DNA from: an uncultured Micrococcales bacterium | GTDB lineage: Bacteria; Actinomycetota; Actinomycetes; Actinomycetales; Microbacteriaceae | Length of the DNA stretch: 64,000 bases | Reading direction: 5' to 3' | Assembly (NCBI GenBank): GCA_903909605.1 | Contig: CAIVWH010000031.1 | Span: forward strand, 3,704-67,703 | Shown here: positions 12,558-61,182 of the stretch, piece after piece | Layout of the letters: every line of letters starts with the position of its first letter | How positions within the stretch are numbered: position 1 is the stretch's first letter | Notes under the pieces: generated by a model | The model's database searches: none | Told to the model about the DNA's origin: nothing | The model's input: the letters and a program-made list of their open reading frames with translations, nothing else | Translations under genes and position numbers: made by a program

Positions 12558-13682
12558 ATGAAGAGTTTTTGGGCAAACCTGAAAGCAATCAAATGGACGG
12601 GAACACTGATCACTGCTGTGGTCGCTTTGATTCTCGCTTCGATAACCAGTGGCTTCTATCTCTCTGACAGCATCCAAAGTTCGAGCACGACTCTGGGCAA
12701 GACCCTGCGGGCGATTGGTTTCTGCCCCTCGCCTAGTTCGGGCACCACTGGCGCAACTGGCCCGCGCGGCCCTGCCGGCCCCAGCGGACCACCCGGACCA
12801 GTCGTCACAATCACCGCGACACCTAAGCCATCGGTGACTCCAATTGCCGGCCCAACCGGAAGCACAGGTAAAGCCGGAGCAACTGGTGCTTCAGGTGCCA
12901 CAGGAAGCTCAGGCGCAAGCGGAGCCCCTGGCGCCAATGGCACGAACGGTACCAATGGAACCAACGGCACCAACGGTGAAACTGGAGCGACCGGTCCTAG
13001 CGGAGCCCCAGGAGCGAGCGGTGCGCCTGGCGCGAGCGGCGCCCCTGGCACCAACGGCACCAACGGAGTTGACGGAGCACCGGGAAGTTGCAGCGCATTG
13101 GACACGGCCGCACTCGCTGGTGACCTCATCCCTGCAGCCGACAACACCTACACACTCGGAACGCAAGCGATGCGTTGGAAAAACCTTCAGCTCGGCCCTG
13201 GCACTCTCTACATTCAGGACACCCAAACCGGCCAGCAGGCGGGAATCACGATCTCGGGTGGCACCATGCTGATCGACGGCGTTGACGGTCTGCGTATCGG
13301 AAACATTCGATTTACCGCCACCGGAATTACCTCTGTGCTCGGCACCCAAGACATCACCATTGGAACAGCGGGCGACACCGGTTGGATGGCGCTTGCACAC
13401 GGAATCAAGTTCCCTGACGGCACTACTCAAAGTACGGCGACAATCGCCGGCCCTCGAGGCGCGACTGGAGCGACGGGTGCAACCGGTGCAACAGGCGCGA
13501 CGGGCGCAACCGGTGCAACTGGCCCGCAAGGACCAGCCGGTTCAATCGATGGATACGTGCCGACCAAGGCCTGCGAATACACCGGTCGTCCGAGCAACAC
13601 GCCAACTGGCACAATCATGATCGGAACCTGCGCGTCACTCGGCCAAGAGGGCAAGGACATCGTCATCCTGCTTGGCAAGTAG
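12558..13682 (+). CDS. membrane-anchored collagen-like (Gly-X-Y repeat) protein
   Basis: N-terminal TM (TLITAVVALILASITSGFY). Gly-X-Y tracts at aa 62-81, 98-176 and 298-327, with a non-repetitive domain between the second and third tracts. Confidence 0.85.
   Translation: MKSFWANLKAIKWTGTLITAVVALILASITSGFYLSDSIQSSSTTLGKTLRAIGFCPSPSSGTTGATGPRGPAGPSGPPGPVVTITATPKPSVTPIAGPTGSTGKAGATGASGATGSSGASGAPGANGTNGTNGTNGTNGETGATGPSGAPGASGAPGASGAPGTNGTNGVDGAPGSCSALDTAALAGDLIPAADNTYTLGTQAMRWKNLQLGPGTLYIQDTQTGQQAGITISGGTMLIDGVDGLRIGNIRFTATGITSVLGTQDITIGTAGDTGWMALAHGIKFPDGTTQSTATIAGPRGATGATGATGATGATGATGATGPQGPAGSIDGYVPTKACEYTGRPSNTPTGTIMIGTCASLGQEGKDIVILLGK
12849..13085 (+). repeat. coding triplet-periodic Gly-X-Y tract (includes GTN x4 and GAPGAS x3)
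   Basis: 79 consecutive Gly-X-Y residues read directly from the translation. Confidence 0.9.
13449..13538 (+). repeat. coding Gly-X-Y tract with seven tandem GAT (Gly-Ala-Thr) units
   Basis: GPR (GAT)x7 GPQ GPA. The seven units use varied synonymous codons (ggcgcgact ggagcgacg ggtgcaacc ...). Confidence 0.9.
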
Positions 13683-40744: not shown

Positions 40745-40820
40745 TGGTGCCCCTCGTCGGACTCGAACCGACACTGAAACGATTTTAAGTCGTCTTCCTC
40801 TGCCATTGGGATAGAGGGGC
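40745..40820 (-). tRNA. tRNA-like gene, 76 nt with encoded CCA and anticodon UAA, but class I (5-nt variable loop)
   Basis: Hand-folded cloverleaf: acceptor GCCCCTC/GAGGGGC (7 bp), anticodon stem GACGA/TCGTT, loop CTTAAAA. The T arm is GTCGG TTCGAGT CCGAC, followed by discriminator A and CCA. The D stem is imperfect (TCCC/AGGA). Confidence 0.65.
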
Positions 40821-49552: not shown

Positions 49553-51160
49553 CTACGCCAAAGTCAGCCCAGATGTCTCGGCAATGCCACGTAGCCAGTT
49601 GTAGGCCCCAAGCGTCGAGAGGCAGTCATCCTCGTTGTACGCATAAATGTCTTGGATGATCTTCTGAGCCTCAGCCTCCTGGCCGGCCTCGCGTGCCTTC
49701 AGGAAGTTGTAGTACTGCCAAACGCTGTCGGCGCCATCGCCGGTGTTGGTTTCACGTGGCTGATTCTCGCGGTAATACTTCTCAATCCGCTTGAGCGAAT
49801 AGCCACCGCAGCCAACCAAAAGCCAATTGCGCGCGACCTTAAGTAGGTCAACCATGAATTCAATTACCTGAGCGGCTTCGAACTCGTAGACACCATAAAA
49901 CTCGGCCAGGTCGCGCAGCCCATTCGGCTCAGGGGAGCTCCAATGGTAGATGTGCATGTCTGGATGTTCAACCCGCCGAGCCAATGCAAAGTCGATGAAA
50001 TCAACGAAGGCTTGGCGTTCCTCTTCATATGAGTTGGCGATAAAAGAAATGAACCGCCCCGTCACATCAACAGAACCGAAAATGTAATTCAAATTCTTGC
50101 CAAACATGGCTGGGTACCACTCGAGGTCGAAAAACAAATCGCCGGCGCTTGGCTCGGGAAGTACGAGAGTGGGCCTGGCTCGCAAAACATATTTCGGGTC
50201 TAACCCTCGTTTCTGGTTGCCGATCATTCGCGCCTCGAGAATAAGTTCGCGCAGGGCATCTCGAGGAACACCAGCCAGGTCAGCATCGTCAGGCAAAGCT
50301 GCAACCTGCCCAACGGTTGTAATGCCATGAGGCTCAAGTTTCTTCGGCAACGAGCTGGCGTTTCTATACATCTGAGTGAATAGGTCGAGTTCGAGGCGGT
50401 CGTGATCGCAAAGTTTCGGGTATGTGCAGTAAATGTCGTCACAGACACCTGGTTTCGGACAATGCTTCACCAGGTCTCGCCATTGCGAGGCCTCGGCAGG
50501 CGAAGTAGCCAGAAGCAGCGAGAGCATGTCGGCCCGCTGAGACTTCAACTTTTCAAGCGCAGTGTCGATTTCCAGGTAAGCCATTTCACTCTTGCCAACA
50601 ATTCCGAGCTCATGACTCGAGGCAAAGCCCGCATCCTTGAGCGCCTCGAAATAGGTTGCAAGTTGCAGCCAATAGAGGTCAGCCGGTTCTGTGCTGTTCT
50701 TGATATCGAGGATTCGGTACTTGGTTGAGTCTTCGGCGATTTTTACGGCCACCAGTTTGGAGTCGACAAATCGAAGTTCATAGTCCTGGCGAACTAAAAG
50801 ATCGGCATAGCCGGTCATGACAATGCCCGAGTAGTCGTATTCGAGGCGTGCCTGCGCAATTACTGGGATTCCAGCCCGCAATGCATCCAGGGTTTGGTCA
50901 AATTTGGCACGTTCCGGCAGCTCAATGAAATCACCCTCCGGCAAACTCGCCTTGATTTCCGCCAGGCGAAATTCTTCGTATTTTCGCCCTTGGATGAAGA
51001 TGAACTTCTCTTTCGGCTCGATGAAGTCGGCCACTGCGTTGAGCGCCCACTGAGACCCGGCACCGACCGCCATCGCGAGTTTGTAGCAGTGCTCGCAAGA
51101 ACTCAAGAAGAAGTCGCGGGCCGAGATGTGCCAGACTCCATCTTTTACGCGTACAGTCAT
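49553..51160 (-). CDS. TM0106-type RecB-like nuclease: PD-(D/E)xK/Cas4-like domain with Cys cluster fused to RNase H-like (DEDD) domain
   Basis: GYADLL ... ILDIKNS (D ... DxK). Cys cluster: CEHC near the N-terminus plus CPKPGVCDDIYCTYPKLC. C-terminal DLFFDLEW ... YHWS ... YNEDDC. GGAGG RBS before ATG 51160. Confidence 0.75.
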   Translation of the reverse strand: MTVRVKDGVWHISARDFFLSSCEHCYKLAMAVGAGSQWALNAVADFIEPKEKFIFIQGRKYEEFRLAEIKASLPEGDFIELPERAKFDQTLDALRAGIPVIAQARLEYDYSGIVMTGYADLLVRQDYELRFVDSKLVAVKIAEDSTKYRILDIKNSTEPADLYWLQLATYFEALKDAGFASSHELGIVGKSEMAYLEIDTALEKLKSQRADMLSLLLATSPAEASQWRDLVKHCPKPGVCDDIYCTYPKLCDHDRLELDLFTQMYRNASSLPKKLEPHGITTVGQVAALPDDADLAGVPRDALRELILEARMIGNQKRGLDPKYVLRARPTLVLPEPSAGDLFFDLEWYPAMFGKNLNYIFGSVDVTGRFISFIANSYEEERQAFVDFIDFALARRVEHPDMHIYHWSSPEPNGLRDLAEFYGVYEFEAAQVIEFMVDLLKVARNWLLVGCGGYSLKRIEKYYRENQPRETNTGDGADSVWQYYNFLKAREAGQEAEAQKIIQDIYAYNEDDCLSTLGAYNWLRGIAETSGLTLA

Positions 51161-51197: not shown

Positions 51198-51920
51198 TTA
51201 CGGGGTCCATCGATTCTTCCAACTACGAGCCCTGTATCCGTCATAACCAGATGGGCCTGCCCAGTATGAGGCAATCTCCGCCTTTTCTTCCCAACCCAAA
51301 TCGGGCCAGTCAGTGCCGGCAATTTCGATGAACTCCTCGACCAGGTCTTCCAAGTAGGTCCGGAAGCCTTTGCGCAGAAAGGTAACGTACTGACGATCCC
51401 AGAACTTGCTGCCATCCTTTTCATCTAAGCGCCAGTGTCGCTGAATGAATCGGTTGATCGTCTTGTGCGAAACCTTGCCCTGTTTCACGAGTTTGAATAG
51501 GTAGTCACCCTGGATGAACTCTCGAAAACTCACCGCTGACTCACTGACGATATTTGAGAGCTCCAACTCTCGGGCGGCCAGCTCTCCGCAAAGTATTAAG
51601 ACTTCATCGTCAAACTCTTGGTCAGAGGCGTAATAAAGCCAACGCTCTCGATTTGGCACGCTCGGCTCGAGGCCGAATAGTTTCACCTCAGCAAGCTTCT
51701 CGAAAAGAATCTTGAGAGCTACCTCATCGAGATTTGCCAGCACCCGAACTTGCAGGAAAAGCCGCTTGTCTGCCGGCTCTGCACAGCTAGCCCAGGCAAG
51801 CTCATTTTGAGATTGCGCGGTCGAGTTCCATCCGCACCTTAGGCATATTGCCGATTCGTTTTCGGCAAACCCGCACTTGCTACATGTTTGACTCAATTGA
51901 GCCCCCTTCAATTTATTCAA
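51198..51920 (-). CDS. hypothetical protein with N-terminal zinc-ribbon (CSKCG ... CLRCGW)
   Basis: 240-aa ORF with a TTG start 6 nt after the upstream stop. No recognisable family beyond the CxxC ... CxxC. Confidence 0.55.
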   Translation of the reverse strand: MNKLKGAQLSQTCSKCGFAENESAICLRCGWNSTAQSQNELAWASCAEPADKRLFLQVRVLANLDEVALKILFEKLAEVKLFGLEPSVPNRERWLYYASDQEFDDEVLILCGELAARELELSNIVSESAVSFREFIQGDYLFKLVKQGKVSHKTINRFIQRHWRLDEKDGSKFWDRQYVTFLRKGFRTYLEDLVEEFIEIAGTDWPDLGWEEKAEIASYWAGPSGYDGYRARSWKNRWTP

Positions 51921-51926
51921 CTTTGA

Positions 51927-52199
51927 CTAAGCGCCGAGCACCCAGTCGCGCTGCGAGGTCGTGTGCCACCCCTTGCAGGTTCCGCATTGGTAGACACGGC
52001 ACTCCTTGCGATTGGTGTGACCCAGCTCGACAATCTGAACGGCTGCCTTGTTCTGGAAACTGTGCAGGAACTGGATCGCCATCTTCTTGTCGCGGTAACG
52101 CACTTTGTCGCGATCGCCCGAGCAGTGGTCTAGTTCAGAGAACCGAGGAAAACGGCTGCGTCGGGCCTCTTGAGTGCGCTTGTGGTTGCGGTGTGACAT
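51927..52199 (-). CDS. small basic Cys/His-rich protein (GH ... CxxC-x-GWH motif)
   Basis: 90 aa with an excellent AAGGAG RBS 6 nt before ATG 52199. Motif ELGHTNRKECRVYQCGTCKGWHTTSQ. Confidence 0.65.
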   Translation of the reverse strand: MSHRNHKRTQEARRSRFPRFSELDHCSGDRDKVRYRDKKMAIQFLHSFQNKAAVQIVELGHTNRKECRVYQCGTCKGWHTTSQRDWVLGA

Positions 52200-52256
52200 T
52201 TGTTACTCCTTACGTTCGTTGATGAGAAAAGAAAGGTACGGCGCCCCGCCGACATT

Positions 52257-52442
52257 TCAGCCTCGGGCCGCAAGCCGGCACACATGCTCGCCGCCATCGG
52301 CCCGGTAGGTTTCGTAAGGCCACTGCTCGGTGCATTTCTGGCAGATCACGGTCGTCTTGCCGTATGGCTTCGGGATGAGGGTGACCAGCCAGTCGAAAAT
52401 CGTGACAATTTCACCCTTGTGCAAGTGCCCGTGTTCAAGCAT
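52257..52442 (-). CDS. small Cys/His-rich protein (GHL ... CQKC ... W motif)
   Basis: 61 aa from ATG 52442. Shares the GHLxxGE(I/V)xT ... CQxC ... W pattern with the 159-aa protein two genes upstream. Confidence 0.45.
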   Translation of the reverse strand: MLEHGHLHKGEIVTIFDWLVTLIPKPYGKTTVICQKCTEQWPYETYRADGGEHVCRLAARG

Positions 52443-52465
52443 CAAGTCGCCGGATGAGTTCGAGA

Positions 52466-52681
52466 TCAGACCACACCAACAAAGCGCCTGCCCGTCATCA
52501 TCAACTTTTTTATGCCATGGACGCCGCGCTCTTGGAAATGCACGGCGGTGGTCAGCTCACCCGCCTTGAGCCGGCTGCGCCACTGGGCATACCAGTGCGT
52601 CTGTGGGTTGGTCGACTGTGCAATCAGCCCCTCAACTCGAGCCTTTGCATCGATTTGTGATTTGTCATACTTCGGATTCAT
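52466..52681 (-). CDS. hypothetical small protein
   Basis: 71 aa; its ATG overlaps the stop of the upstream gene (ATGA). Confidence 0.5.
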   Translation of the reverse strand: MNPKYDKSQIDAKARVEGLIAQSTNPQTHWYAQWRSRLKAGELTTAVHFQERGVHGIKKLMMTGRRFVGVV

Positions 52682-53157
52682 TCGGCACTTCCTTCAACGT
52701 GTTCGATACGCACACATCCTGGATGCTGCGCGAGTGTCGCTTCAAGATCGATCAGTGGTTGGCCATCGCCGGCAACGTCTTCGCGACGAACTACAGCCCA
52801 ACGGCCACAGCAGTTTTGGCAGTAGAGCTCGTGGCCACGACCATCCTGGAAATTGTGAATCAGCAGCGTGGCGACCTCGCCGCCTTGCAGATGGCCGAAG
52901 GCGAGGTACACCTGGGTTTCGGAATTAGGTGCAATCAGGCCGCAGGTGCAGACTTCGATCTCGTCGTCTAAGTGGTGCGCGACATCGTGGATGCCCTGGA
53001 TCTGATCGATGACGTATTCGGTCCACTCGCTCGAGCGGCGGGAGTACATCCAGCGGCCGTATCTCTCTTGCGGGGTCTCGGCCTTCTGGCGCTCGAGGCG
53101 CTCGTATCGGGCGAGGGTTTTGGCCGCGTTACGAAGCGGCGCGTAGTACTTAGGCAT
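52678..53157 (-). CDS. hypothetical Cys/His-rich protein (CTCG ... GHLQGGEVAT ... CQNCCGRW)
   Basis: 159 aa. An AAAGGGG RBS sits inside a hairpin just before ATG 53157. Confidence 0.6.
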   Translation of the reverse strand: MPKYYAPLRNAAKTLARYERLERQKAETPQERYGRWMYSRRSSEWTEYVIDQIQGIHDVAHHLDDEIEVCTCGLIAPNSETQVYLAFGHLQGGEVATLLIHNFQDGRGHELYCQNCCGRWAVVRREDVAGDGQPLIDLEATLAQHPGCVRIEHVEGSAE

Positions 53158-53331
53158 AAAAAATGCCCCTTTCTGGGGCTATGCCCCACTGTTGTTTTGC
53201 CTTGCGGCCCTATTACTGCTTTGCCTCCTGCACCGATGCCCGTGGGGGCCGGTTGCCTCACCCGAAGTTGTCACCGCTTCGAGGTCGCACAGAGAGATGG
53301 CTCTTGCCTCTGTGTCTGAATAGCTATTTAG

Positions 53332-53691
53332 TTATGACGAAAGATTAGACCCAGGCGCCGACATTGCGCCATCATCTTTAGGCGTGTTGTCGACAAACCA
53401 AATCAGCTCGTAGCGATCGATGATGTGACCGATGCTCACCTCGACGAATGGCGAACCCGGGCCATCAGCATATTCACGGATTGTGGTGTGCCAACCGAAA
53501 CCGTCGTTCGCGAGATTGATTGCCTGCATCGCCATTGTGTGCCGCTGGTCGCGGTATTCCTTGGTGTATGTGCGGTCGTTGGTGGTCATCGCAAGGTAGC
53601 AGCGCAGCTTCTTGTTTAGCGGTGCATCCTTCGGCAGAATCTGTTCGAGCAGCGAGATCTTCAATAGTTGCTTTGAGACGTGAGTTTGCAT
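53332..53691 (-). CDS. hypothetical protein
   Basis: 119 aa from ATG 53691, preceded by an AGGAGG RBS (ATAGGAGGCCC ATG). No recognisable family. Confidence 0.6.
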   Translation of the reverse strand: MQTHVSKQLLKISLLEQILPKDAPLNKKLRCYLAMTTNDRTYTKEYRDQRHTMAMQAINLANDGFGWHTTIREYADGPGSPFVEVSIGHIIDRYELIWFVDNTPKDDGAMSAPGSNLSS

Positions 53692-53871
53692 GGGCCTCCT
53701 ATGGCATTGGAACCTAAGAAACAAAGATTTTTGAGACTTTATTTCTAAATGTCAGAAACTTTTTCGAAAATCTTTCTCCTATATACACAGGGGGAATTTG
53801 TCCCCTGACTTATTAGTTCCCAGAGTTTCGAAAATGTCCGTACACATATGAGGGAAAAATCTGTTCTGTTA
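53692..53871. promoter_or_regulatory. AT-rich intergenic region with TTTCGAAA palindromes, a 12-nt direct repeat and a hairpin (internal island promoter/operator candidate)
   Basis: TTTTCGAAAA at 53761-53770 and TTTCGAAA at 53826-53833. TTAT(T/C)AGTTCCC at 53810-53821 and 53869-53880. CAGGGG-N8-CCCCTG at 53788-53807. Confidence 0.45.
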
Positions 53872-54840
53872 TCAGTTCCCGAAACTCGACAGCGCCAGGT
53901 TGGTCGCAAGAGTGCGCAGATCGTCGACTTTGTAGTCGGGCCATCCGTGAACAATGCTCGACCACTCGGCAGGAATGTTCGAGTCGCCCCATCGAGCGCC
54001 GACCAACGAGCCGCAGATTGCCGCGGTGGTGTCGGTGTCGTCGCCTACCCGCACGCAGAGCTCGACGGCCGCCTTGAACTGATAGCGGCCCTCGTAGGCA
54101 GTCTGGGTAATGGCTGCCCAGGCTAGTTGTATCGATGAAATCACGTAGCCATTCGGGTTGAACTCGAAAGGGTCGGTCTTCTCGGCGGCCTTCATGCGCT
54201 CTCGCCACAGTTCGCGCGAAACCGGATCGAGCTGGTCGATGCCGTGCCAGAGCCCGTCGTAGTTGCCGTTCAAGACCGCGCCACGGATAGCCTCTGACCA
54301 GATGTAGCAGGCCTGCCAGCACTCGTCGGCCGAGTGAGTGAGCTCACTGAACGACTTGGCCGCCTCGAGCAGCCCTGCCCTGCCATCGAGAAAACCAAGT
54401 GCGATTGGGCTGGTTCGCATCAGGCTGCCATTTCCGTGGTGGCGCTCGTGAGCACTGGCGTAGTCGCGGGTTGCCTGCATCATCTCGCGGAACAGCTCTT
54501 CAGGGTCGCCCTCGTTGGCCATGATTCGCGCGAAAACAGACGATGTCTGAATGCCGATGTCTTTGGCCGACTTTTGCCACTCGAAGAACTGAGTGGCCGC
54601 CGACTGCAAAGCACGGTCACTCGAAAAGCCATGCGCTAGCCCAGCTCGACCAATGGCCACGGCCTGGTCAGTGTCGTCGGTCCACTCGCCTAGACCGAAC
54701 ATCGGCCCGGCCTTCATAACCACCTCGGCGCTCGGCGCCAGGGGACGTCCGAACTCGTACGACTGGCCAAGCGCATCGCCAACGGCCTGACCAACAAGCG
54801 CACCGCGAGCGCGATCGAGCAAATCTGCATCAAGTTTCAT
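53872..54840 (-). CDS. ADP-ribosylglycohydrolase family protein (ARH/DraG/Tri1-like)
   Basis: ALVGQAVGDALGQSYEFG, GEWTDDTDQAVAI and a C-terminal GDDTDTTAAICGSLVGARWG. The start ATG 54840 shares one base with the upstream stop (TGATG). Confidence 0.88.
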   Translation of the reverse strand: MKLDADLLDRARGALVGQAVGDALGQSYEFGRPLAPSAEVVMKAGPMFGLGEWTDDTDQAVAIGRAGLAHGFSSDRALQSAATQFFEWQKSAKDIGIQTSSVFARIMANEGDPEELFREMMQATRDYASAHERHHGNGSLMRTSPIALGFLDGRAGLLEAAKSFSELTHSADECWQACYIWSEAIRGAVLNGNYDGLWHGIDQLDPVSRELWRERMKAAEKTDPFEFNPNGYVISSIQLAWAAITQTAYEGRYQFKAAVELCVRVGDDTDTTAAICGSLVGARWGDSNIPAEWSSIVHGWPDYKVDDLRTLATNLALSSFGN

Positions 54841-55127
54841 CAGTGCCTCCTGCTTTCTTTTTGCTTGCCGCGAATGAACGCCACGATCCCATAGATGTTC
54901 CAAGTTGCCATAAGCACGAACACCAAAATGAATGCGCCTACTGTCCGGTCGGCGATCCAATAATCGTGGAACCAGTAGTAGGTGTTTGCTTTCTTACCGT
55001 TGGCCCAATAGATCTCGAACCAGAAGCGATCGAGTGGTAGCAGCCAAAGCGCTACTTGAGTTATCACGCCGGCAGTCAAAGTGAACCGCCAGCGGCGACT
55101 AAGTAATTTCCAGACCGACTCTTTCAT
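54840..55127 (-). CDS. small membrane protein (2-3 TM), hypothetical
   Basis: 95 aa. The AGGAG RBS overlaps the stop of the upstream gene, and the ORF is coupled to the ARH gene downstream. Confidence 0.6.
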   Translation of the reverse strand: MKESVWKLLSRRWRFTLTAGVITQVALWLLPLDRFWFEIYWANGKKANTYYWFHDYWIADRTVGAFILVFVLMATWNIYGIVAFIRGKQKESRRH

Positions 55128-55136
55128 TTCTTGCTC

Positions 55137-55589
55137 CTAAATGTGAAGTGCGGCGAGCAGGCCCACCAGCAAGGTAATAAGGACCTGCAGCGCGGGCGCG
55201 ATCCAGGCGGTCCATTTGGTGGCTTTCGACATCCAAACCAGGTGGTTTGCAACTCGATGACTTGAATCGGCAACCCAGCGACTTAAGCGCGCCATAGCTA
55301 ACCAAATGATGATTAGAGCCACTTCGCAAATGGCATTCCGAGAGTCATCAGTGATGTCGAAAGGAGGCTTCACCCAGTCGATGACCCAATTAGTCAACTC
55401 GCCGAGCGAAAAGTACAGAACGACCGAATAAGCAAAGGCGCGGTGCCTGGTTGTTTTGAAGATGCCATCGGCGTTATCGCGATCACAGTCAATCCCACAC
55501 AAATGGCCGGGGTGGTCATGTATCTCGTCGTCCTCATAGCCGATGTAGTCAGAGAAAAACTCACCCAAGCGTCGAAGATAGGCGAACAT
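55137..55589 (-). CDS. membrane protein with N-terminal DHPGHLCGIDC motif (paralogue B)
   Basis: 150 aa with 3 hydrophobic segments. Clear paralogy to the upstream gene (DYIG ... D-x-PGH-x-CGIDC ... RL ... AD-x-S ... AN-x-L ... K). TGATG junction with the upstream gene. Confidence 0.65.
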   Translation of the reverse strand: MFAYLRRLGEFFSDYIGYEDDEIHDHPGHLCGIDCDRDNADGIFKTTRHRAFAYSVVLYFSLGELTNWVIDWVKPPFDITDDSRNAICEVALIIIWLAMARLSRWVADSSHRVANHLVWMSKATKWTAWIAPALQVLITLLVGLLAALHI

Positions 55590-56071
55590 CAGTGACCCCC
55601 AAACCAGCCTTGGATTGTCTCAATCAACCAGAACACGGGGTAGTAAGCGACTGCGCTGCCGAACAAAAGGTAAGTCGCAAACTTGGCACCTTTGGCCACA
55701 AACAACAAACGATTTGCTTCATTCTGGCTGTGATCCGCGATGCGCTTGGCAAGACGCCGCGCCCCTAGCCAAATAAACAGGGTCAAGAGCGTAGGCAAGA
55801 CCAAACGCGTGGGCCGAGTCTGCCACTCGAGTGGAACAACATAAGAAAGTGCCTTAGGCGCCAACCAGGACATCCCGAAAAAGAGGAAGTACATCGTGTA
55901 GCGCGTCAACCTTTTAGGGTCGTTGTACCAAGCCACCTTTGGCTCAACCAAGCAGTCGATGCCACAGATGTGCCCCGGATAATCGTGTTCGGAGTCATAC
56001 TGGCGCGGCCCGCTGCTCAACCCGATGTAATCGAGAATCCGCTGCCATCTGCTCAAGTCTTGATCTGCCAT
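55589..56071 (-). CDS. membrane protein with N-terminal DYPGHICGIDC motif (paralogue A)
   Basis: 160 aa with 3 hydrophobic segments and a GGAGGG RBS before ATG 56071. First gene of the operon. Confidence 0.65.
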   Translation of the reverse strand: MADQDLSRWQRILDYIGLSSGPRQYDSEHDYPGHICGIDCLVEPKVAWYNDPKRLTRYTMYFLFFGMSWLAPKALSYVVPLEWQTRPTRLVLPTLLTLFIWLGARRLAKRIADHSQNEANRLLFVAKGAKFATYLLFGSAVAYYPVFWLIETIQGWFGGH

Positions 56072-56132: not shown

Positions 56133-56170
56133 CCTGATTTACCTTCTTTCTCTCACCGAAAGAGGGACTT

Positions 56171-57334
56171 ATGACTTCTCAAATCATCGTCATGAACTTG
56201 CAAGGCGTCGCCGTAGCGTCTGACACAGCCGTCACCAAACGCACCGAAAACAGCCTGCAGAACGCCGGCTTCGAGAGCAAGATCATCCGATTGCCTGAGC
56301 CGCACAAGGTCGCGATTCTGCATGCAGGCATGACCAACATCAACAACGTGCCGCACCTATGGCAGATTCGCCAGTGGGTCGCCACGCTCAGCAAGGCGCT
56401 ACCCACGGTCAAGGACTACGTCGACAGTTACGTGCGCTTCAGCAACGCCGACAAGGTCATGGTGCCAAATGCCACCGGCCAAGGCGTCGTGCGGTGGGTT
56501 CTTGAGTCATTCATCGATGTGGAGGCTCGCCACCTGGGCAAGAGTGCGCGCAATTCTTTCAACGCTAAGCTCACCGACAAGCAGAACATCGCCGCCGCGC
56601 GCAAGGCGATCGCTCAGCACCTGTCTGAGATGAAGGCCTTCTACAAGGAAGCGCCTACCTTCAAAGGTCTGACCCGCGAGGGCGTCGCCCGCGCCATGGC
56701 CCCACTCAAGAAGCACCTCAACAAGTATTTCGCTGAGGCCTTTGCGCAGATCCCGATCTCAACTGCTCAGACCTCAACCCTCAAGGGCATGATGGCCGAT
56801 GTGTTGCTCAAGCAAGACAGCGCACCGTCAGACTCGATCCTGCACTTTGTCGGCTTTGGCACAACCGAGCGCTATGCCCGACTCCATAAGGCGATCGTGC
56901 GCGGCAAATATGCCGGCAAACTCGTGGCTGGCGTATTTCAACTCGGGCCGCAGGTCGGCCCTGGCGAGAAAGAGAACAGCATCGACTGCTGGACCACCTC
57001 GCAGAACGACGCCATCAACTCATTCATGATGGGCTACCACCCGCAGACTCTCGAAACCGTCGACAAGGCGCTGGGCAAGGCCTTTGGCGAGAAGCTTGCC
57101 GAGGCACACCCCGACTTGGATGTTCGTTCAGCAGTTCACTCCACCACCCACCAGGCTTTCAGCCAAGCGCGCGATGAGCTCTCGCAGCCGATGTGGGATG
57201 CCCTGCGAAACCAGTCGGTCGAAAGCCTGGCGGAGTTCGCCAAGGCCATGGTCACTATCCAGTCCCTCTCGAGTTTTTACCGCGGGGATGGCACTGTTGG
57301 TGGCGATGTTGAAACGTACTTACTTCGAAAGTAG
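56171..57334 (+). CDS. proteasome-beta/HslV-like Ntn-hydrolase fold protein with large helical insertions (inferred)
   Basis: 387 aa with a GAAAGAGGGA RBS. N-terminus M-TSQIIVMNLQGVAVASDTAVT ... SKIIRLPEPHKVAILHAGMT parallels HslV and PrcB. This gives Thr1, Asp17 and a Lys at about position 36. The C-terminal TVGGDVETYLL resembles the GG-x-V-x-V-x-x-I end of beta subunits. Confidence 0.55.
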   Translation: MTSQIIVMNLQGVAVASDTAVTKRTENSLQNAGFESKIIRLPEPHKVAILHAGMTNINNVPHLWQIRQWVATLSKALPTVKDYVDSYVRFSNADKVMVPNATGQGVVRWVLESFIDVEARHLGKSARNSFNAKLTDKQNIAAARKAIAQHLSEMKAFYKEAPTFKGLTREGVARAMAPLKKHLNKYFAEAFAQIPISTAQTSTLKGMMADVLLKQDSAPSDSILHFVGFGTTERYARLHKAIVRGKYAGKLVAGVFQLGPQVGPGEKENSIDCWTTSQNDAINSFMMGYHPQTLETVDKALGKAFGEKLAEAHPDLDVRSAVHSTTHQAFSQARDELSQPMWDALRNQSVESLAEFAKAMVTIQSLSSFYRGDGTVGGDVETYLLRK

Positions 57335-57939: not shown

Positions 57940-59118
57940 GTGAAAAAGTACAAATTTGAAGAACTTTCGACTGCAGATTTAGTTATCGACGCTATTTATG
58001 AGGGTGATAGGTCGACGTCGTCTTATGGCGGAGAACCATTGCACCACCTAATGCCTGGTCTTGGTACCCAGGGTGGTTTTAGAAAACGCAAGGGGCTCGG
58101 TGAAAACTTTGTCGGTCTTGTACTGACAAGTACAGGTAATGAACCTGACTGGCCTGATGAGCTAAACCCTTTCACCGGAACCTACACATATTTTGGCGAC
58201 AATCGCACGCCAGGAAAAGATCTTCACGACACTAAACCCGGTGGAAATAAGACTCTTGCACAAATTTTCGAATTGGCCCATGGCGATTCCGAGTCGCGGG
58301 CAAGATGTCCTTTGATATTGATTTTTGAATCTGTCGGCACAGGTCGCGATATGGTTTTTCGTGGTCTCGCGGTTCCTGGCACACGCCAGTTAGGTCCACG
58401 TGAAGATTTAGTAGCTATTTGGAAATCTTTTGGAGGGCAAAGATTTCAAAACTACAAAGCCATGTTCACAATCTTGGATTGTGGCTCAATTTCAGGTTCT
58501 TGGATTCGCGAAGTGTTTACTTCACGTGCCATAAATCTTGATGACCAGAGAACGCCTTTGGCTTACCGAAACTGGGTCGAATCAGGGAAGATTCAACCCC
58601 TGATGTCAGAACCGATCAAAACTCGGTCTCCTGAAGATCAGATGCCCCTTCCTGGTCTTCAAACTTTCTTAATTGAACAAATCAGAGAAACCTTTGCATC
58701 AGACCCATATGCTTTCGAACCAATTGCAGCTGAAATTTGGCGCATGTCTAGCCCGACACCAATGGAGTTTGAAATGACCAAACGTTATCGCGATGGAGGG
58801 CGAGACGCAATCGGATACCTTCTGCTCGGCCCGAAATCAGATGCTATCAAGGTCCACTTTGCGCTTGAAGCAAAACTTTACGGCAAGACCACTCGCGTTG
58901 GGGTCAAAGAAACAAGCCGGTTAATTTCTCGATTAAAGCACAGAGAATTTGGGGTGTTGGTTACGACTTCAGTTTTAGACCGACAGGCCTATGAGGAAAT
59001 TCGTTCGGATTCACATCCGATTATTGTGATATCCGCCCGCGATGTTGCAGAAATTCTCATAAGCCAAGGCGTCAATAATCCGATTTTGCTTGCGGAATGG
59101 ATTGATTCGCTCAATTAG
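57940..59118 (+). CDS. modification-dependent (type IV) restriction endonuclease, AspBHI/Mrr-like
   Basis: C-terminal PD-(D/E)xK of Mrr type with D-x20-EAK spacing (GGRDAIGY ... FALEAKLY). The N-terminal ~230-aa domain resembles the AspBHI-type modified-cytosine reader as I recall it. The gene is visibly AT-richer than its surroundings. GAGGGG RBS before GTG 57940. Confidence 0.65.
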   Translation: MKKYKFEELSTADLVIDAIYEGDRSTSSYGGEPLHHLMPGLGTQGGFRKRKGLGENFVGLVLTSTGNEPDWPDELNPFTGTYTYFGDNRTPGKDLHDTKPGGNKTLAQIFELAHGDSESRARCPLILIFESVGTGRDMVFRGLAVPGTRQLGPREDLVAIWKSFGGQRFQNYKAMFTILDCGSISGSWIREVFTSRAINLDDQRTPLAYRNWVESGKIQPLMSEPIKTRSPEDQMPLPGLQTFLIEQIRETFASDPYAFEPIAAEIWRMSSPTPMEFEMTKRYRDGGRDAIGYLLLGPKSDAIKVHFALEAKLYGKTTRVGVKETSRLISRLKHREFGVLVTTSVLDRQAYEEIRSDSHPIIVISARDVAEILISQGVNNPILLAEWIDSLN

Positions 59119-60032: not shown

Positions 60033-60136
60033 GGCACAAGTTTGGCAGAGCGATTTTGGGGTTGTGCACAACTGGGGCGGGTAATTGCAGCGGTTGGCAA
60101 GATGCTTGAGTGCCTTCAATTCAGTACTTCGACGCG

Positions 60137-60502
60137 ATGGAATTCAGTGCTTTCTTAGAGTCGCTAGAAACTGAGGACCGAATCCTGGTTGCCATGTTTC
60201 TGGACACCCTGGCTAAGTACGGCCCTGACGTGGACGGCCGATGGTTCAAGACTCTGCCAGATGACCTAATCCAAGTGCGAATTGGGCCAACAAGACAGGT
60301 GGTTGGTTCGCGTTTGGGTCTTTCGCTAAGCACACCTAGTGAGCCAATGCTCATTCGCATCTACCTGATTGAGTCGGGGCCGAACATCGTCATTCTGAAT
60401 GGCTACGACAAAGAAAAGGATCGATCTCGTGCAACGCAGCAAGCCGCCATTCGACTGGCCAACCTTAGGGCGGAATTGTGTAAGTCGAACCTTGCTAGGT
60501 GA
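60137..60502 (+). CDS. type II toxin, RelE/ParE superfamily, Gp49/HigB-like
   Basis: FKTLPDDLIQVRIG ... IRIYLIESGPNIVILNGYDKEKDRSRATQQAAIRLA fits the Gp49-like pattern. The start could be GTG 60110. Confidence 0.7.
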   Translation: MEFSAFLESLETEDRILVAMFLDTLAKYGPDVDGRWFKTLPDDLIQVRIGPTRQVVGSRLGLSLSTPSEPMLIRIYLIESGPNIVILNGYDKEKDRSRATQQAAIRLANLRAELCKSNLAR

Positions 60503-60846
60503 AGTGTTTTATTACATCATTGAACTGGGAGGTAATTGTGGGACAGCATGAGGAAATCTGGGCTCCGATTAAGGGCAGCTGGTCAGAGGCTGAGTGGGCC
60601 TTTTACAACCAAGGAATGCAGGCATTGCAATTCGAAGTTCAGAGAGTTCGTCTTGGGCAGTTAGTGAAAACTGCGCGCCTGGCGAAGGGGCTTTCCCAGC
60701 GAGCATTGGCTGAGCTGACTGGGGTTCAGCAGCGGGAAATTTGCCGCATTGAAAATCACAAAGGAAACCCGACGCTTGCAACGCAACACAAATTGTTCAG
60801 TGCGCTTGGCATCCGAACTGTCTTCGAGATACCTGCCGCAGCCTAG
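60499..60846 (+). CDS. XRE-family HTH antitoxin (HigA-like)
   Basis: GTGA overlap with the toxin stop. HTH segment LSQRALAELTGVQQREICRIENHKGNPTLATQHKLFSALG. Confidence 0.75.
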   Translation: MKCFITSLNWEVIVGQHEEIWAPIKGSWSEAEWAFYNQGMQALQFEVQRVRLGQLVKTARLAKGLSQRALAELTGVQQREICRIENHKGNPTLATQHKLFSALGIRTVFEIPAAA

Positions 60847-60894
60847 TTGTTGATAACCCGAGCGGGGTTTTCTGACGGGGTTTAGGTTGACGGC

Positions 60895-61182
60895 ATGATT
60901 GACGAACCCGAACTTGCCGCCGGATGGACCAAAGCCGACTGGGAGCACTACCGCCTGCTATCGCTTGCCCTGAGCCTCGAGGCTGAACGCGGGCGAATCG
61001 GTGACTTGTTGTTCGAGCGGCGCTGCGAGCAAGGGTTCACTCGCGGTCAATTGGCTCGCCTCACCGGGATGCGCGCCAAAGACATCAAGCGAATTGAAAA
61101 GGGGCGGGGTGATCCGCCGTTGAGCCTGCTGCATGGCCTGTTCGAGGTGCTCGGAATTGCTGCGCGTTACTCGGCGCTTTGA
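60895..61182 (+). CDS. second XRE-family HTH protein
   Basis: FTRGQLARLTGMRAKDIKRIEKGRGDPPLSLLHGLFEVLG. The 3' end overlaps the mfd 3' end by 16 nt. Confidence 0.65.
   Translation: MIDEPELAAGWTKADWEHYRLLSLALSLEAERGRIGDLLFERRCEQGFTRGQLARLTGMRAKDIKRIEKGRGDPPLSLLHGLFEVLGIAARYSAL

Follow-up and report, generated by a model that had tools for sequence, protein, structure and literature searches.

The 64,000-nucleotide stretch of contig CAIVWH010000031.1 analysed here, called the window in the following, comes from an uncultured Micrococcales bacterium and carries at 56171-57334 a gene for a protein of 387 amino acids (aa), the target of this analysis. Conserved residues and predicted structures make it very likely that the target is an active enzyme of the proteasome fold with a threonine nucleophile. 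The favoured reading, which is probable without being secure, is that of a stand-alone proteasome-like N-terminal nucleophile (Ntn) hydrolase with the architecture of PMI-3 and PMI-4 (PMI, for a proteasome homolog that bears multiple insertions), a threonine protease gated by its insertions and active in phage-host conflict. This type of proteasome fold was already catalogued computationally in 2021, with no experimental characterisation; the context of defence and mobile-element genes, unreported by Fuchs et al., may be the new part.

Gene, catalytic residues and fold

The reading frame is complete, and translation gave the same 387 aa and the same termini as the preliminary description of this DNA, which had been made from the letters alone. 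The protein begins with MTSQIIVMNLQGVAVASD and ends with GDGTVGGDVETYLLRK. An in-frame TGA at 56135-56137 lies upstream of the ATG at 56171 with no ATG, GTG or TTG between them, and the start is therefore unambiguously Met-Thr. Thr at the second position is a permitted substrate of methionine aminopeptidase. With Met1 removed, the mature protein has Thr1 and Asp17, the two residues that had first been likened to those of proteasome beta and HslV, while the Lys of the SKIIRL motif is residue 37, or 36 in the mature form. The exact target sequence is found on seven contigs in public assemblies. Its 90% cluster is represented by a fragment of 33 aa, and a homologue search restricted to representatives could not return the target itself. 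The features of the gene, all on the + strand, are the following.

56160..56167 (+): Shine-Dalgarno-like sequence AAGAGGGA, 3 nt 5' of the ATG
56171..57334 (+): target open reading frame (ORF), predicted proteasome-fold Ntn hydrolase, complete, 387 aa and stop
56174..56176 (+): codon of Thr2, predicted N-terminal nucleophile, aligned to archaeal beta Thr1 and equivalent to proteasome Thr1
56222..56224 (+): codon of Asp18, equivalent to proteasome Asp/Glu17 in the HHalign register
56279..56281 (+): codon of Lys37, equivalent to proteasome Lys33 in the HHalign register
56327..56329 (+): codon of Gly53, aligned to proteasome Gly47, predicted oxyanion hole
56462..56815 (+): insertion 1, made up of four long helices that follow H1/H2 (residues 98-215; pLDDT 84-94, from DSSP of the model)
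57047..57208 (+): insertion 2, likewise helical, lying between H3 and H4 (residues 293-346, DSSP)
57284..57331 (+): C-terminal block GDGTVGGDVETYLLRK, equivalent to proteasome 165-180, the S169-G170 loop and strand S10 (HHalign)

Conservation of the predicted catalytic residues was assessed in 183 family sequences, which were not selected by motif, aligned to the hidden Markov model of the family; their identity to the target is about 20%. Position 2 is Thr in 173 and Ser in one of 174 sequences, the remaining nine of the 183 being truncated gene calls. Exactly one residue precedes the Thr in 169 of the 174, and the family is therefore without a propeptide. Asp18 (178/178), Lys37 (179/179) and Gly228 (183/183) are invariant, Gln278 is kept in 179 of 182 sequences, Gly377 and Gly378 each in 180 of 181, and Gly53 in 157 of 180. 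Residue 375 is Thr in 145 sequences and Ser in 27. The preliminary description had made its proposal depend on the conservation of Thr2, Asp18 and Lys37 in homologues, and all three are kept among these sequences. The Thr/Asp/Lys/Gly pattern is far beyond chance.

P0170, a full-length relative, has Ser at the nucleophile position (MSAVIAIMNK...). Alternation of Thr and Ser at the nucleophile is familiar from other Ntn hydrolases.

The AlphaFold2 model of the target, built from a 35-sequence alignment, has a predicted local distance difference test score (pLDDT) of 85.1 and a predicted template modelling score (pTM) of 0.80. Its elements are ordered S1-S5, H1/H2, four extra helices, S6-S9, H3, two extra helices, H4 and S10, with the core helices at residues 62-72 and 80-92 (H1/H2), 280-286 (H3) and 350-371 (H4) according to DSSP. 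When the model is compared with the PDB by Foldseek, the top 50 matches are all proteasome-family chains (20S beta and alpha, Anbu, BPH, HslV and Mycobacterium 20S), with probabilities up to 1.0 and a best E of 1.2e-3. The second, independent AlphaFold2 model, of the 24% identical relative P0011 (pLDDT 84.6), matches only proteasome subunits in the PDB, with a best E of 2.6e-5, 24 matches at E<=1e-3 and a TMt of at most 0.63. Phage-encoded proteasome-beta/HslV-like proteins rank first in a viral structure library (E 4.7e-4, TMt 0.64). The models indicate that the target very probably forms an alpha-beta-beta-alpha Ntn sandwich of proteasome-type topology. This is the fold of proteasome beta and HslV that had been proposed from the termini, with structure prediction named as the check.

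The sequence comparisons used a Thermoplasma acidophilum beta reference that is 100% identical, and an Escherichia coli HslV reference that is identical at 174 of 175 positions, to the deposited PDB chains. The HHalign match to a 17-sequence archaeal beta profile spans H4-S10-S11 (E 1.7e-4). The family motif TVGGxIEVAxIxRxxGVxW pairs with archaeal beta 165-186 at E 3.7e-5, which bears out the likeness of the C-terminus to a GG-x-V strand. The family core profile, freed of its inserts, can be aligned over the full length of the archaeal beta profile (2-215 to 1-180, E 1.2e-3), in the register Thr2=Thr1, Asp18=Glu/Asp17, Lys37=Lys33 and Gly53=Gly47. A gain of three residues precedes the Lys, so that the Lys at mature position 36 with a three-residue insertion, as first described, is reproduced. 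The core alignment scores 28.5, against 11.2 for the reversed profile and maxima of 20.5 in 30 column shuffles and 25.4 in 30 block shuffles; no collinear full-length alignment was found among the column or block shuffles.

Other searches gave fainter signals. PF00227 ('Proteasome') is the Pfam family with the most member matches, all sub-threshold (4 of 76, E 0.065-1), and two family members have weak N-terminal matches to phrog_1040 ('peptidase HslV family'). With HslV alone as the partner, the HHalign probability is 0.35%, and the N-terminal block has D17 and K33 in register. The family profile searched against PDB sequences is dominated by coiled-coil and helical-repeat noise from the inserts, and proteasome beta and BPH appear only at E 0.15-0.8. 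The sequence evidence is modest alone, but it agrees in every detail with the structural evidence.

Three candidate matches were rejected. The match to the NHLP-RiPP model TIGR04509 (E 0.024) is noise within insertion 1, and an endonuclease III-like phmmer match among PDB sequences (E 0.035), in the insert region, is supported neither by profile nor by fold. An equation of FVGFG (226-230) with proteasome G128-S129-G130 is wrong, since topology and HHalign put FVGFG on strand S6 (LLVGG).

Insertions, family and earlier catalogue

The two insertions comprise about 118 and 54 aa in the target, together about 172 extra helical residues, and account for the 150-180 additional, helical-looking residues noted at first. 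The helices of insertion 2 cover residues 291-309 and 318-346 (DSSP). No helices are inserted between S3 and S4, where residues 20-34 form just a short beta hairpin that includes the three-residue gain. Both insertions are present in all family members, at lengths of 103-146 aa for insertion 1 and 47-83 aa for insertion 2. Their information content is 1.0 and 1.1 bits per column, respectively, and that of the core segments 1.6-2.3. None of the columns with at least 90% identity lies in either insertion, and 16 lie in the core segments. The target and its closest relatives end nine residues past the GG motif, where most members have 20-35; the terminal GVxW strand of the family is absent from them.

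The family is large. A word-indexed search returned 11 unnamed metagenomic relatives and, with a profile, 37. When 1.84 billion cluster representatives were searched exhaustively with an HMMER profile, 4,958 matched at E<=1e-3 (clusters of 50% identity) and 2,258 at E<=1e-30. Nearly all of the profile-search relatives are about 400 aa long and match from residue 1, and the source names of the relatives are all 'hypothetical' or 'uncharacterized'. The target matches phrog_5990 ('unknown function', PHROGs v4) at E 5.2e-20 over residues 1-341, and relatives match it at E 5e-50 to 2.9e-124. Hosts of the family include an Actinomycetota metagenome-assembled genome (MAG), a Porphyromonas phage, Syntrophotalea, and plasmids of Enterococcus, Rhizobium, Pantoea and Ruegeria.

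The architecture has been described before. Fuchs, Alva & Lupas (2021) reported 22 proteasome-like families beyond HslV, Anbu, BPH and connectase, which share an S1-S11 core with Thr1/Ser1, Asp17, Lys33 and Gly47, the new ones being without a propeptide (PMC8665760). Among them PMI-3 and PMI-4 have long insertions after H1/H2 and between H3 and H4; insertions between H3 and H4 are found in PMI-2 to PMI-6, and insertions between S3 and S4 only in connectase, PMI-5 and PMI-6 (PMC8665760). PMI-4, with HDY66466.1 as cluster representative, comprised 501 sequences at nr90 from Proteobacteria, Firmicutes, Actinobacteria, Bacteroidetes, other phyla and phages (PMC8665760). Fuchs et al. found no AAA+ partner (PMC8665760). 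The present family fits PMI-4 best and PMI-3 second, as judged by published architecture and distribution; look-ups of the family's clusters brought up none of the accessions given by Fuchs et al. The suggestion in the preliminary description that the protein opens a new branch, in addition to HslV, Anbu, BPH and connectase, is out of date because the 22 further families were already described in 2021 (PMC8665760); phrog_5990 exists as well.

Gene neighbourhoods of the target and its relatives

The window contains only housekeeping genes from 1 to 49.5 kb, and its gene order is eno-ftsB-DUF501 ... mazG-mfd, which together with the match to an Actinomycetota genome (L013, see below) would point to Actinomycetota. 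The target lies within a stretch of lower G+C content at about 49.5-59.2 kb (0.50-0.56, compared with 0.58-0.61 around it). No integrase or transposase was found in this variable region, and no AAA+ unfoldase or alpha subunit in the whole window, so that the gene is encoded alone, as had been stated from the start. The mobile island that had also been proposed stands in so far as the region is variable and lower in G+C and relatives are found in prophages, plasmids and islands with insertion sequence (IS) elements or integrases; mobility genes are absent at the window locus. The neighbouring features are listed below.

49553-51160 (-): RecB-like nuclease of the TM0106 family (TIGR03491, E 1.7e-36), which has an RNase_H_2 domain and lies on the margin of the variable region
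51198-53724 (-): several ORFs (130-240 aa) for which Pfam, NCBIfam, PADLOC and PHROGs gave no match
53872-56071 (-): four-gene operon divergent from the target across a 100-bp gap, consisting of an ADP-ribosylglycohydrolase, a 95-aa ORF and two small paralogues
53872..54960 (-): ADP-ribosylglycohydrolase at the far end of the divergent operon (PF03747, E 2.4e-46)
55137..56071 (-): pair of small paralogues, 150 and 160 aa long, predicted to be membrane proteins (paralogy E 3e-17, no family match)
57940..59118 (+): AspBHI-like methyl-directed restriction endonuclease, 0.6 kb 3' of the target (PF18062, RE_AspBHI_N, E 5.3e-51; Mrr_cat; PADLOC mREase_II, E 2.9e-137)
60110-61182 (+): 130-aa ORF without family match followed by two HTH_3/XRE-type ORFs (115 and 95 aa), between mazG and mfd

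The restriction endonuclease is followed by mazG, the HTH/XRE cluster and mfd; the ORFs of that cluster, at 60110-61182, may be a toxin-antitoxin-like or regulatory cassette. Within the group of small ORFs on the other side, that at 51198-51920 has a weak zinc-ribbon-like match (Cas12f TNB, E 0.04). The order of ADP-ribosylglycohydrolase, small ORF and target is repeated at one locus of a relative (L006). The ORFs at the position of the small membrane ORF at L006 and in the Actinomycetota MAG (L013) are homologous to each other (E 2e-11), and their similarity to the window copies is marginal (E 0.002-0.03). The divergent small membrane proteins may be a partner module specific to this subclade.

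A nuclease-helicase fusion with a related RNase_H_2 domain neighbours the target homologue at locus L005. The tRNA-Leu gene at 40745-40820 was considered as a boundary of the island and rejected, as housekeeping genes separate the two. A gene at 12558-13682 (+), in the housekeeping part of the window, encodes 374 aa that include collagen triple-helix repeats (PF01391, E 4.9e-19).

The Actinomycetota MAG carries a homologue of 39% identity in the same hotspot, beside mazG-mfd-pth-rplY, where it adjoins a Type II restriction enzyme to which a C5/N4 methylase is fused. The interval beside mazG-mfd appears to be a variable hotspot in Actinomycetota, with different restriction cargo in the two genomes. 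A defence protein recognised by PADLOC lies within 10 kb at eight of 14 independent loci, a tally made without a background control and a lead rather than proof. The genes concerned are mREase_II in the window, the Type II restriction-modification system in the MAG, GmrSD with PDC-S48/UvrD, an MkoA-like helicase, PbeA/PbeC, HmaA/HmaB (E = 0), HEC-06/GmrSD with PDC-S37, and PDC-S51. On a ninth contig Prim-Pol, MORC-like and SNF2 genes are found near the homologue.

Three further loci belong to the accessory regions of mobile elements, one each in a phage, a prophage and a small plasmid. The homologue of the Porphyromonas phage (BK068103.1, L014/L015) stands among methyltransferase and hypothetical genes, between the adaptor/portal and the neck genes. 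It was rejected as a major capsid protein or prohead protease, both of which are annotated elsewhere in that phage. On the Pantoea dispersa plasmid NZ_CP106661.1 (L020) the homologue is a reverse-strand moron among prophage tail genes, and on a 41-kb Enterococcus plasmid it is found beside recombinase and GIY-YIG genes. Some relatives lie in islands flanked by IS elements or integrases. No AAA+ or alpha partner was found on the homologue contigs examined.

Proposed mechanism, rival explanations and known systems

The proposed mechanism would begin with removal of Met1 by methionine aminopeptidase, and with no propeptide to cleave Thr2 would then be a free N-terminal nucleophile. Its O-gamma would attack a peptide or amide bond, aided by its own alpha-amine, Lys37 and Asp18, with the backbone of Gly53 as the oxyanion hole. 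The two obligatory, fast-evolving insertions (118 and 54 aa) would stand in for control by ring assembly and an AAA+ unfoldase. Most likely they prevent proteasome-type rings or change them, and select or gate the substrate in the manner of connectase with its helical insert. With no propeptide and no ring assembly with an unfoldase to restrain activity, the insertions would probably gate or select the substrate. Judged from the anatomy, the chances that they replace ring and AAA+ control and gate or select substrate are about evenly balanced.

A role in phage-host or mobile-element conflict, to which the gene neighbourhoods point, is proposed tentatively and falls somewhat short of probable. 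In such a role the protein would most likely act as a single-gene defence or abortive-infection protease, in which the variable insertions recognise a cue or substrate derived from the invader or from stress. In its immune form the proposal would be that of a constitutively matured Thr1 protease, without AAA+ partner or ring assembly, restrained and targeted by two hypervariable insertions as the sensors of a phage protein or of an infection cue; its partners in the actinobacterial subclade may be the divergent upstream small membrane proteins. That the whole family is a widespread single-gene anti-phage or abortive-infection system, and the first bacterial immune effector on a proteasome fold, is speculative and rather unlikely.

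Several observations weigh against the favoured reading. The fold assignment rests mainly on predicted structures, the sequence link to the proteasome being statistically modest. The Foldseek TM-scores are low (0.25-0.63), which is attributed to the approximately 172 inserted residues. Equivalents of Ser129, Asp166 and Ser169 are not evident, the positions aligned by HHalign being Ala277-Gln278 and Thr375-Val376; Gln278 and Thr375, conserved nearby, could substitute for them. None of the Pfam, NCBIfam and PADLOC models recognises the target (Pfam and PADLOC at E<=0.1). With respect to the conflict role, besides the uncontrolled tally, no partner gene is conserved across the family, the small upstream membrane ORF being found only in the closest actinobacterial relatives, and the family is missing from PADLOC 2.0, its candidate systems included (no families at E<=0.1). 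Carriage by phages could equally mean a function that benefits the phage. The literature searches gave no paper that ties proteasome-like or Ntn proteins to anti-phage defence, and a 2026 review of proteasomes adds nothing on these insertion-bearing families. Fuchs et al. found no informative genomic context (PMC8665760).

The most radical alternative, a chance likeness to the proteasome at both termini of an unrelated and mostly helical protein, could draw on the missing Pfam and NCBIfam matches, on the phmmer matches to the PDB, which are noise, and on the coiled-coil noise that dominates the profile search. It does not explain why two confident models have exclusively proteasome-family fold matches, why the insert-free profile is collinear end to end and beats all shuffles, and why Thr, Asp, Lys and Gly stand in the expected register across about 180 sequences at some 20% identity; it is effectively refuted, with a negligible probability. 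A housekeeping protease that compartmentalises itself in rings, as the proteasome, HslV and BPH do, and degrades damaged proteins without an ATPase would share the fold and the catalytic residues, and ATP-independent roles for such homologues are discussed by Fuchs et al. (PMC8665760). The long insertions of PMI-3 and PMI-4 are, however, at sites argued to clash with ring and double-ring contacts (PMC8665760), and their fast evolution in the present family is atypical of a housekeeping enzyme. The family is patchily distributed, in association with mobile elements (phage, prophage, plasmids and variable islands), and subclade patterns recovered just one GTDB representative genome. This explanation is considered quite improbable.

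The two other alternatives are improbable to a slightly lesser degree. The Thr nucleophile may be used in another way, by a sequence-specific ligase or transpeptidase of the connectase kind or by an amidase with a non-protein substrate. Ntn machinery supports such chemistry, and connectase is a monomeric proteasome homologue with specificity from a helical insert (PMC8665760); the target family likewise combines large helical inserts with the lack of a propeptide and of a partner ATPase. Connectase, however, is without H1/H2 and has its insert between S3 and S4, whereas the target has H1/H2 and its inserts elsewhere, and no candidate substrate gene is conserved nearby. This explanation concerns the chemistry only and is compatible with a role in conflict. 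The protein might also be an accessory protease in the service of mobile elements, which counters host defence or processes proteins of the element. The family is a phage orthologous group (phrog_5990), an accessory gene in the Porphyromonas phage and a reverse-strand moron in the Pantoea prophage, and counter-defence genes too gather near defence islands. Against this, the gene of the window, of the Actinomycetota MAG and of several metagenomic contigs lies in chromosomal islands next to restriction and other defence genes, and neither phage structural genes nor mobility genes are close by. Morons of prophages, moreover, often protect the host, and a morphogenetic role is unlikely as the Porphyromonas phage carries a prohead protease and a capsid gene of its own.

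The insertion-gated Thr protease in phage-host conflict remains the favoured reading. The structural and sequence results are an independent confirmation that the insertion-rich type is a real Thr1 family, predicted to be catalytically intact and equal to phrog_5990. They also provide a testable functional lead, as the gene travels with restriction, Hma, Pbe and GmrSD genes, with phages and with plasmids, and its inserts evolve fast. If the conflict role is true, the family gains a biological role and bacterial immunity a new protease fold; if the lead fails, what is left is a homologue correctly identified but catalogued before.

The proteasome fold in bacteria has long been viewed as that of a few housekeeping machines, namely 20S and HslV and lately Anbu and BPH. 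The 20S proteasome beta subunits (MEROPS T1, PF00227) are the best structural matches of the target, with the same order of strands and helices and with Thr, Asp/Glu17, Lys33, Gly47 and the GG-x-[IV]-[DE]-V strand in register. The target differs from them in its approximately 172 extra helical residues and in being without propeptide, alpha subunit and regulatory ATPase, and it falls below the Pfam threshold. HslV (ClpQ) is likewise a bacterial Thr protease of the proteasome fold, with Thr directly after Met in many species. HslV is, however, compact at about 175 aa, assembles into double hexameric rings and has HslU encoded alongside it as its activator, whereas the target is twice as long, has no HslU and carries inserts at the ring-contact sites. 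Archaeal connectase (DUF2121) is likewise a stand-alone protein with no ATPase, and its helical insertion confers substrate specificity; unlike the target, it occurs in methanogenic archaea only, acts as a ligase on a known substrate, is without H1/H2 and has the insert between S3 and S4.

The closest known groups are phrog_5990 and the PMI families. The former is matched directly by the family and is a PHROG without functional or structural annotation, in which the proteasome fold is not recorded. The target subclade, which lacks the terminal strand of most of its family, is likened to PMI-4 by its published description; with PMI-3 and PMI-4 it shares the same Ntn core of Thr1, Asp17, Lys33 and Gly47, both insertion sites, the absence of a propeptide and of an AAA+ partner, and the patchy spread.

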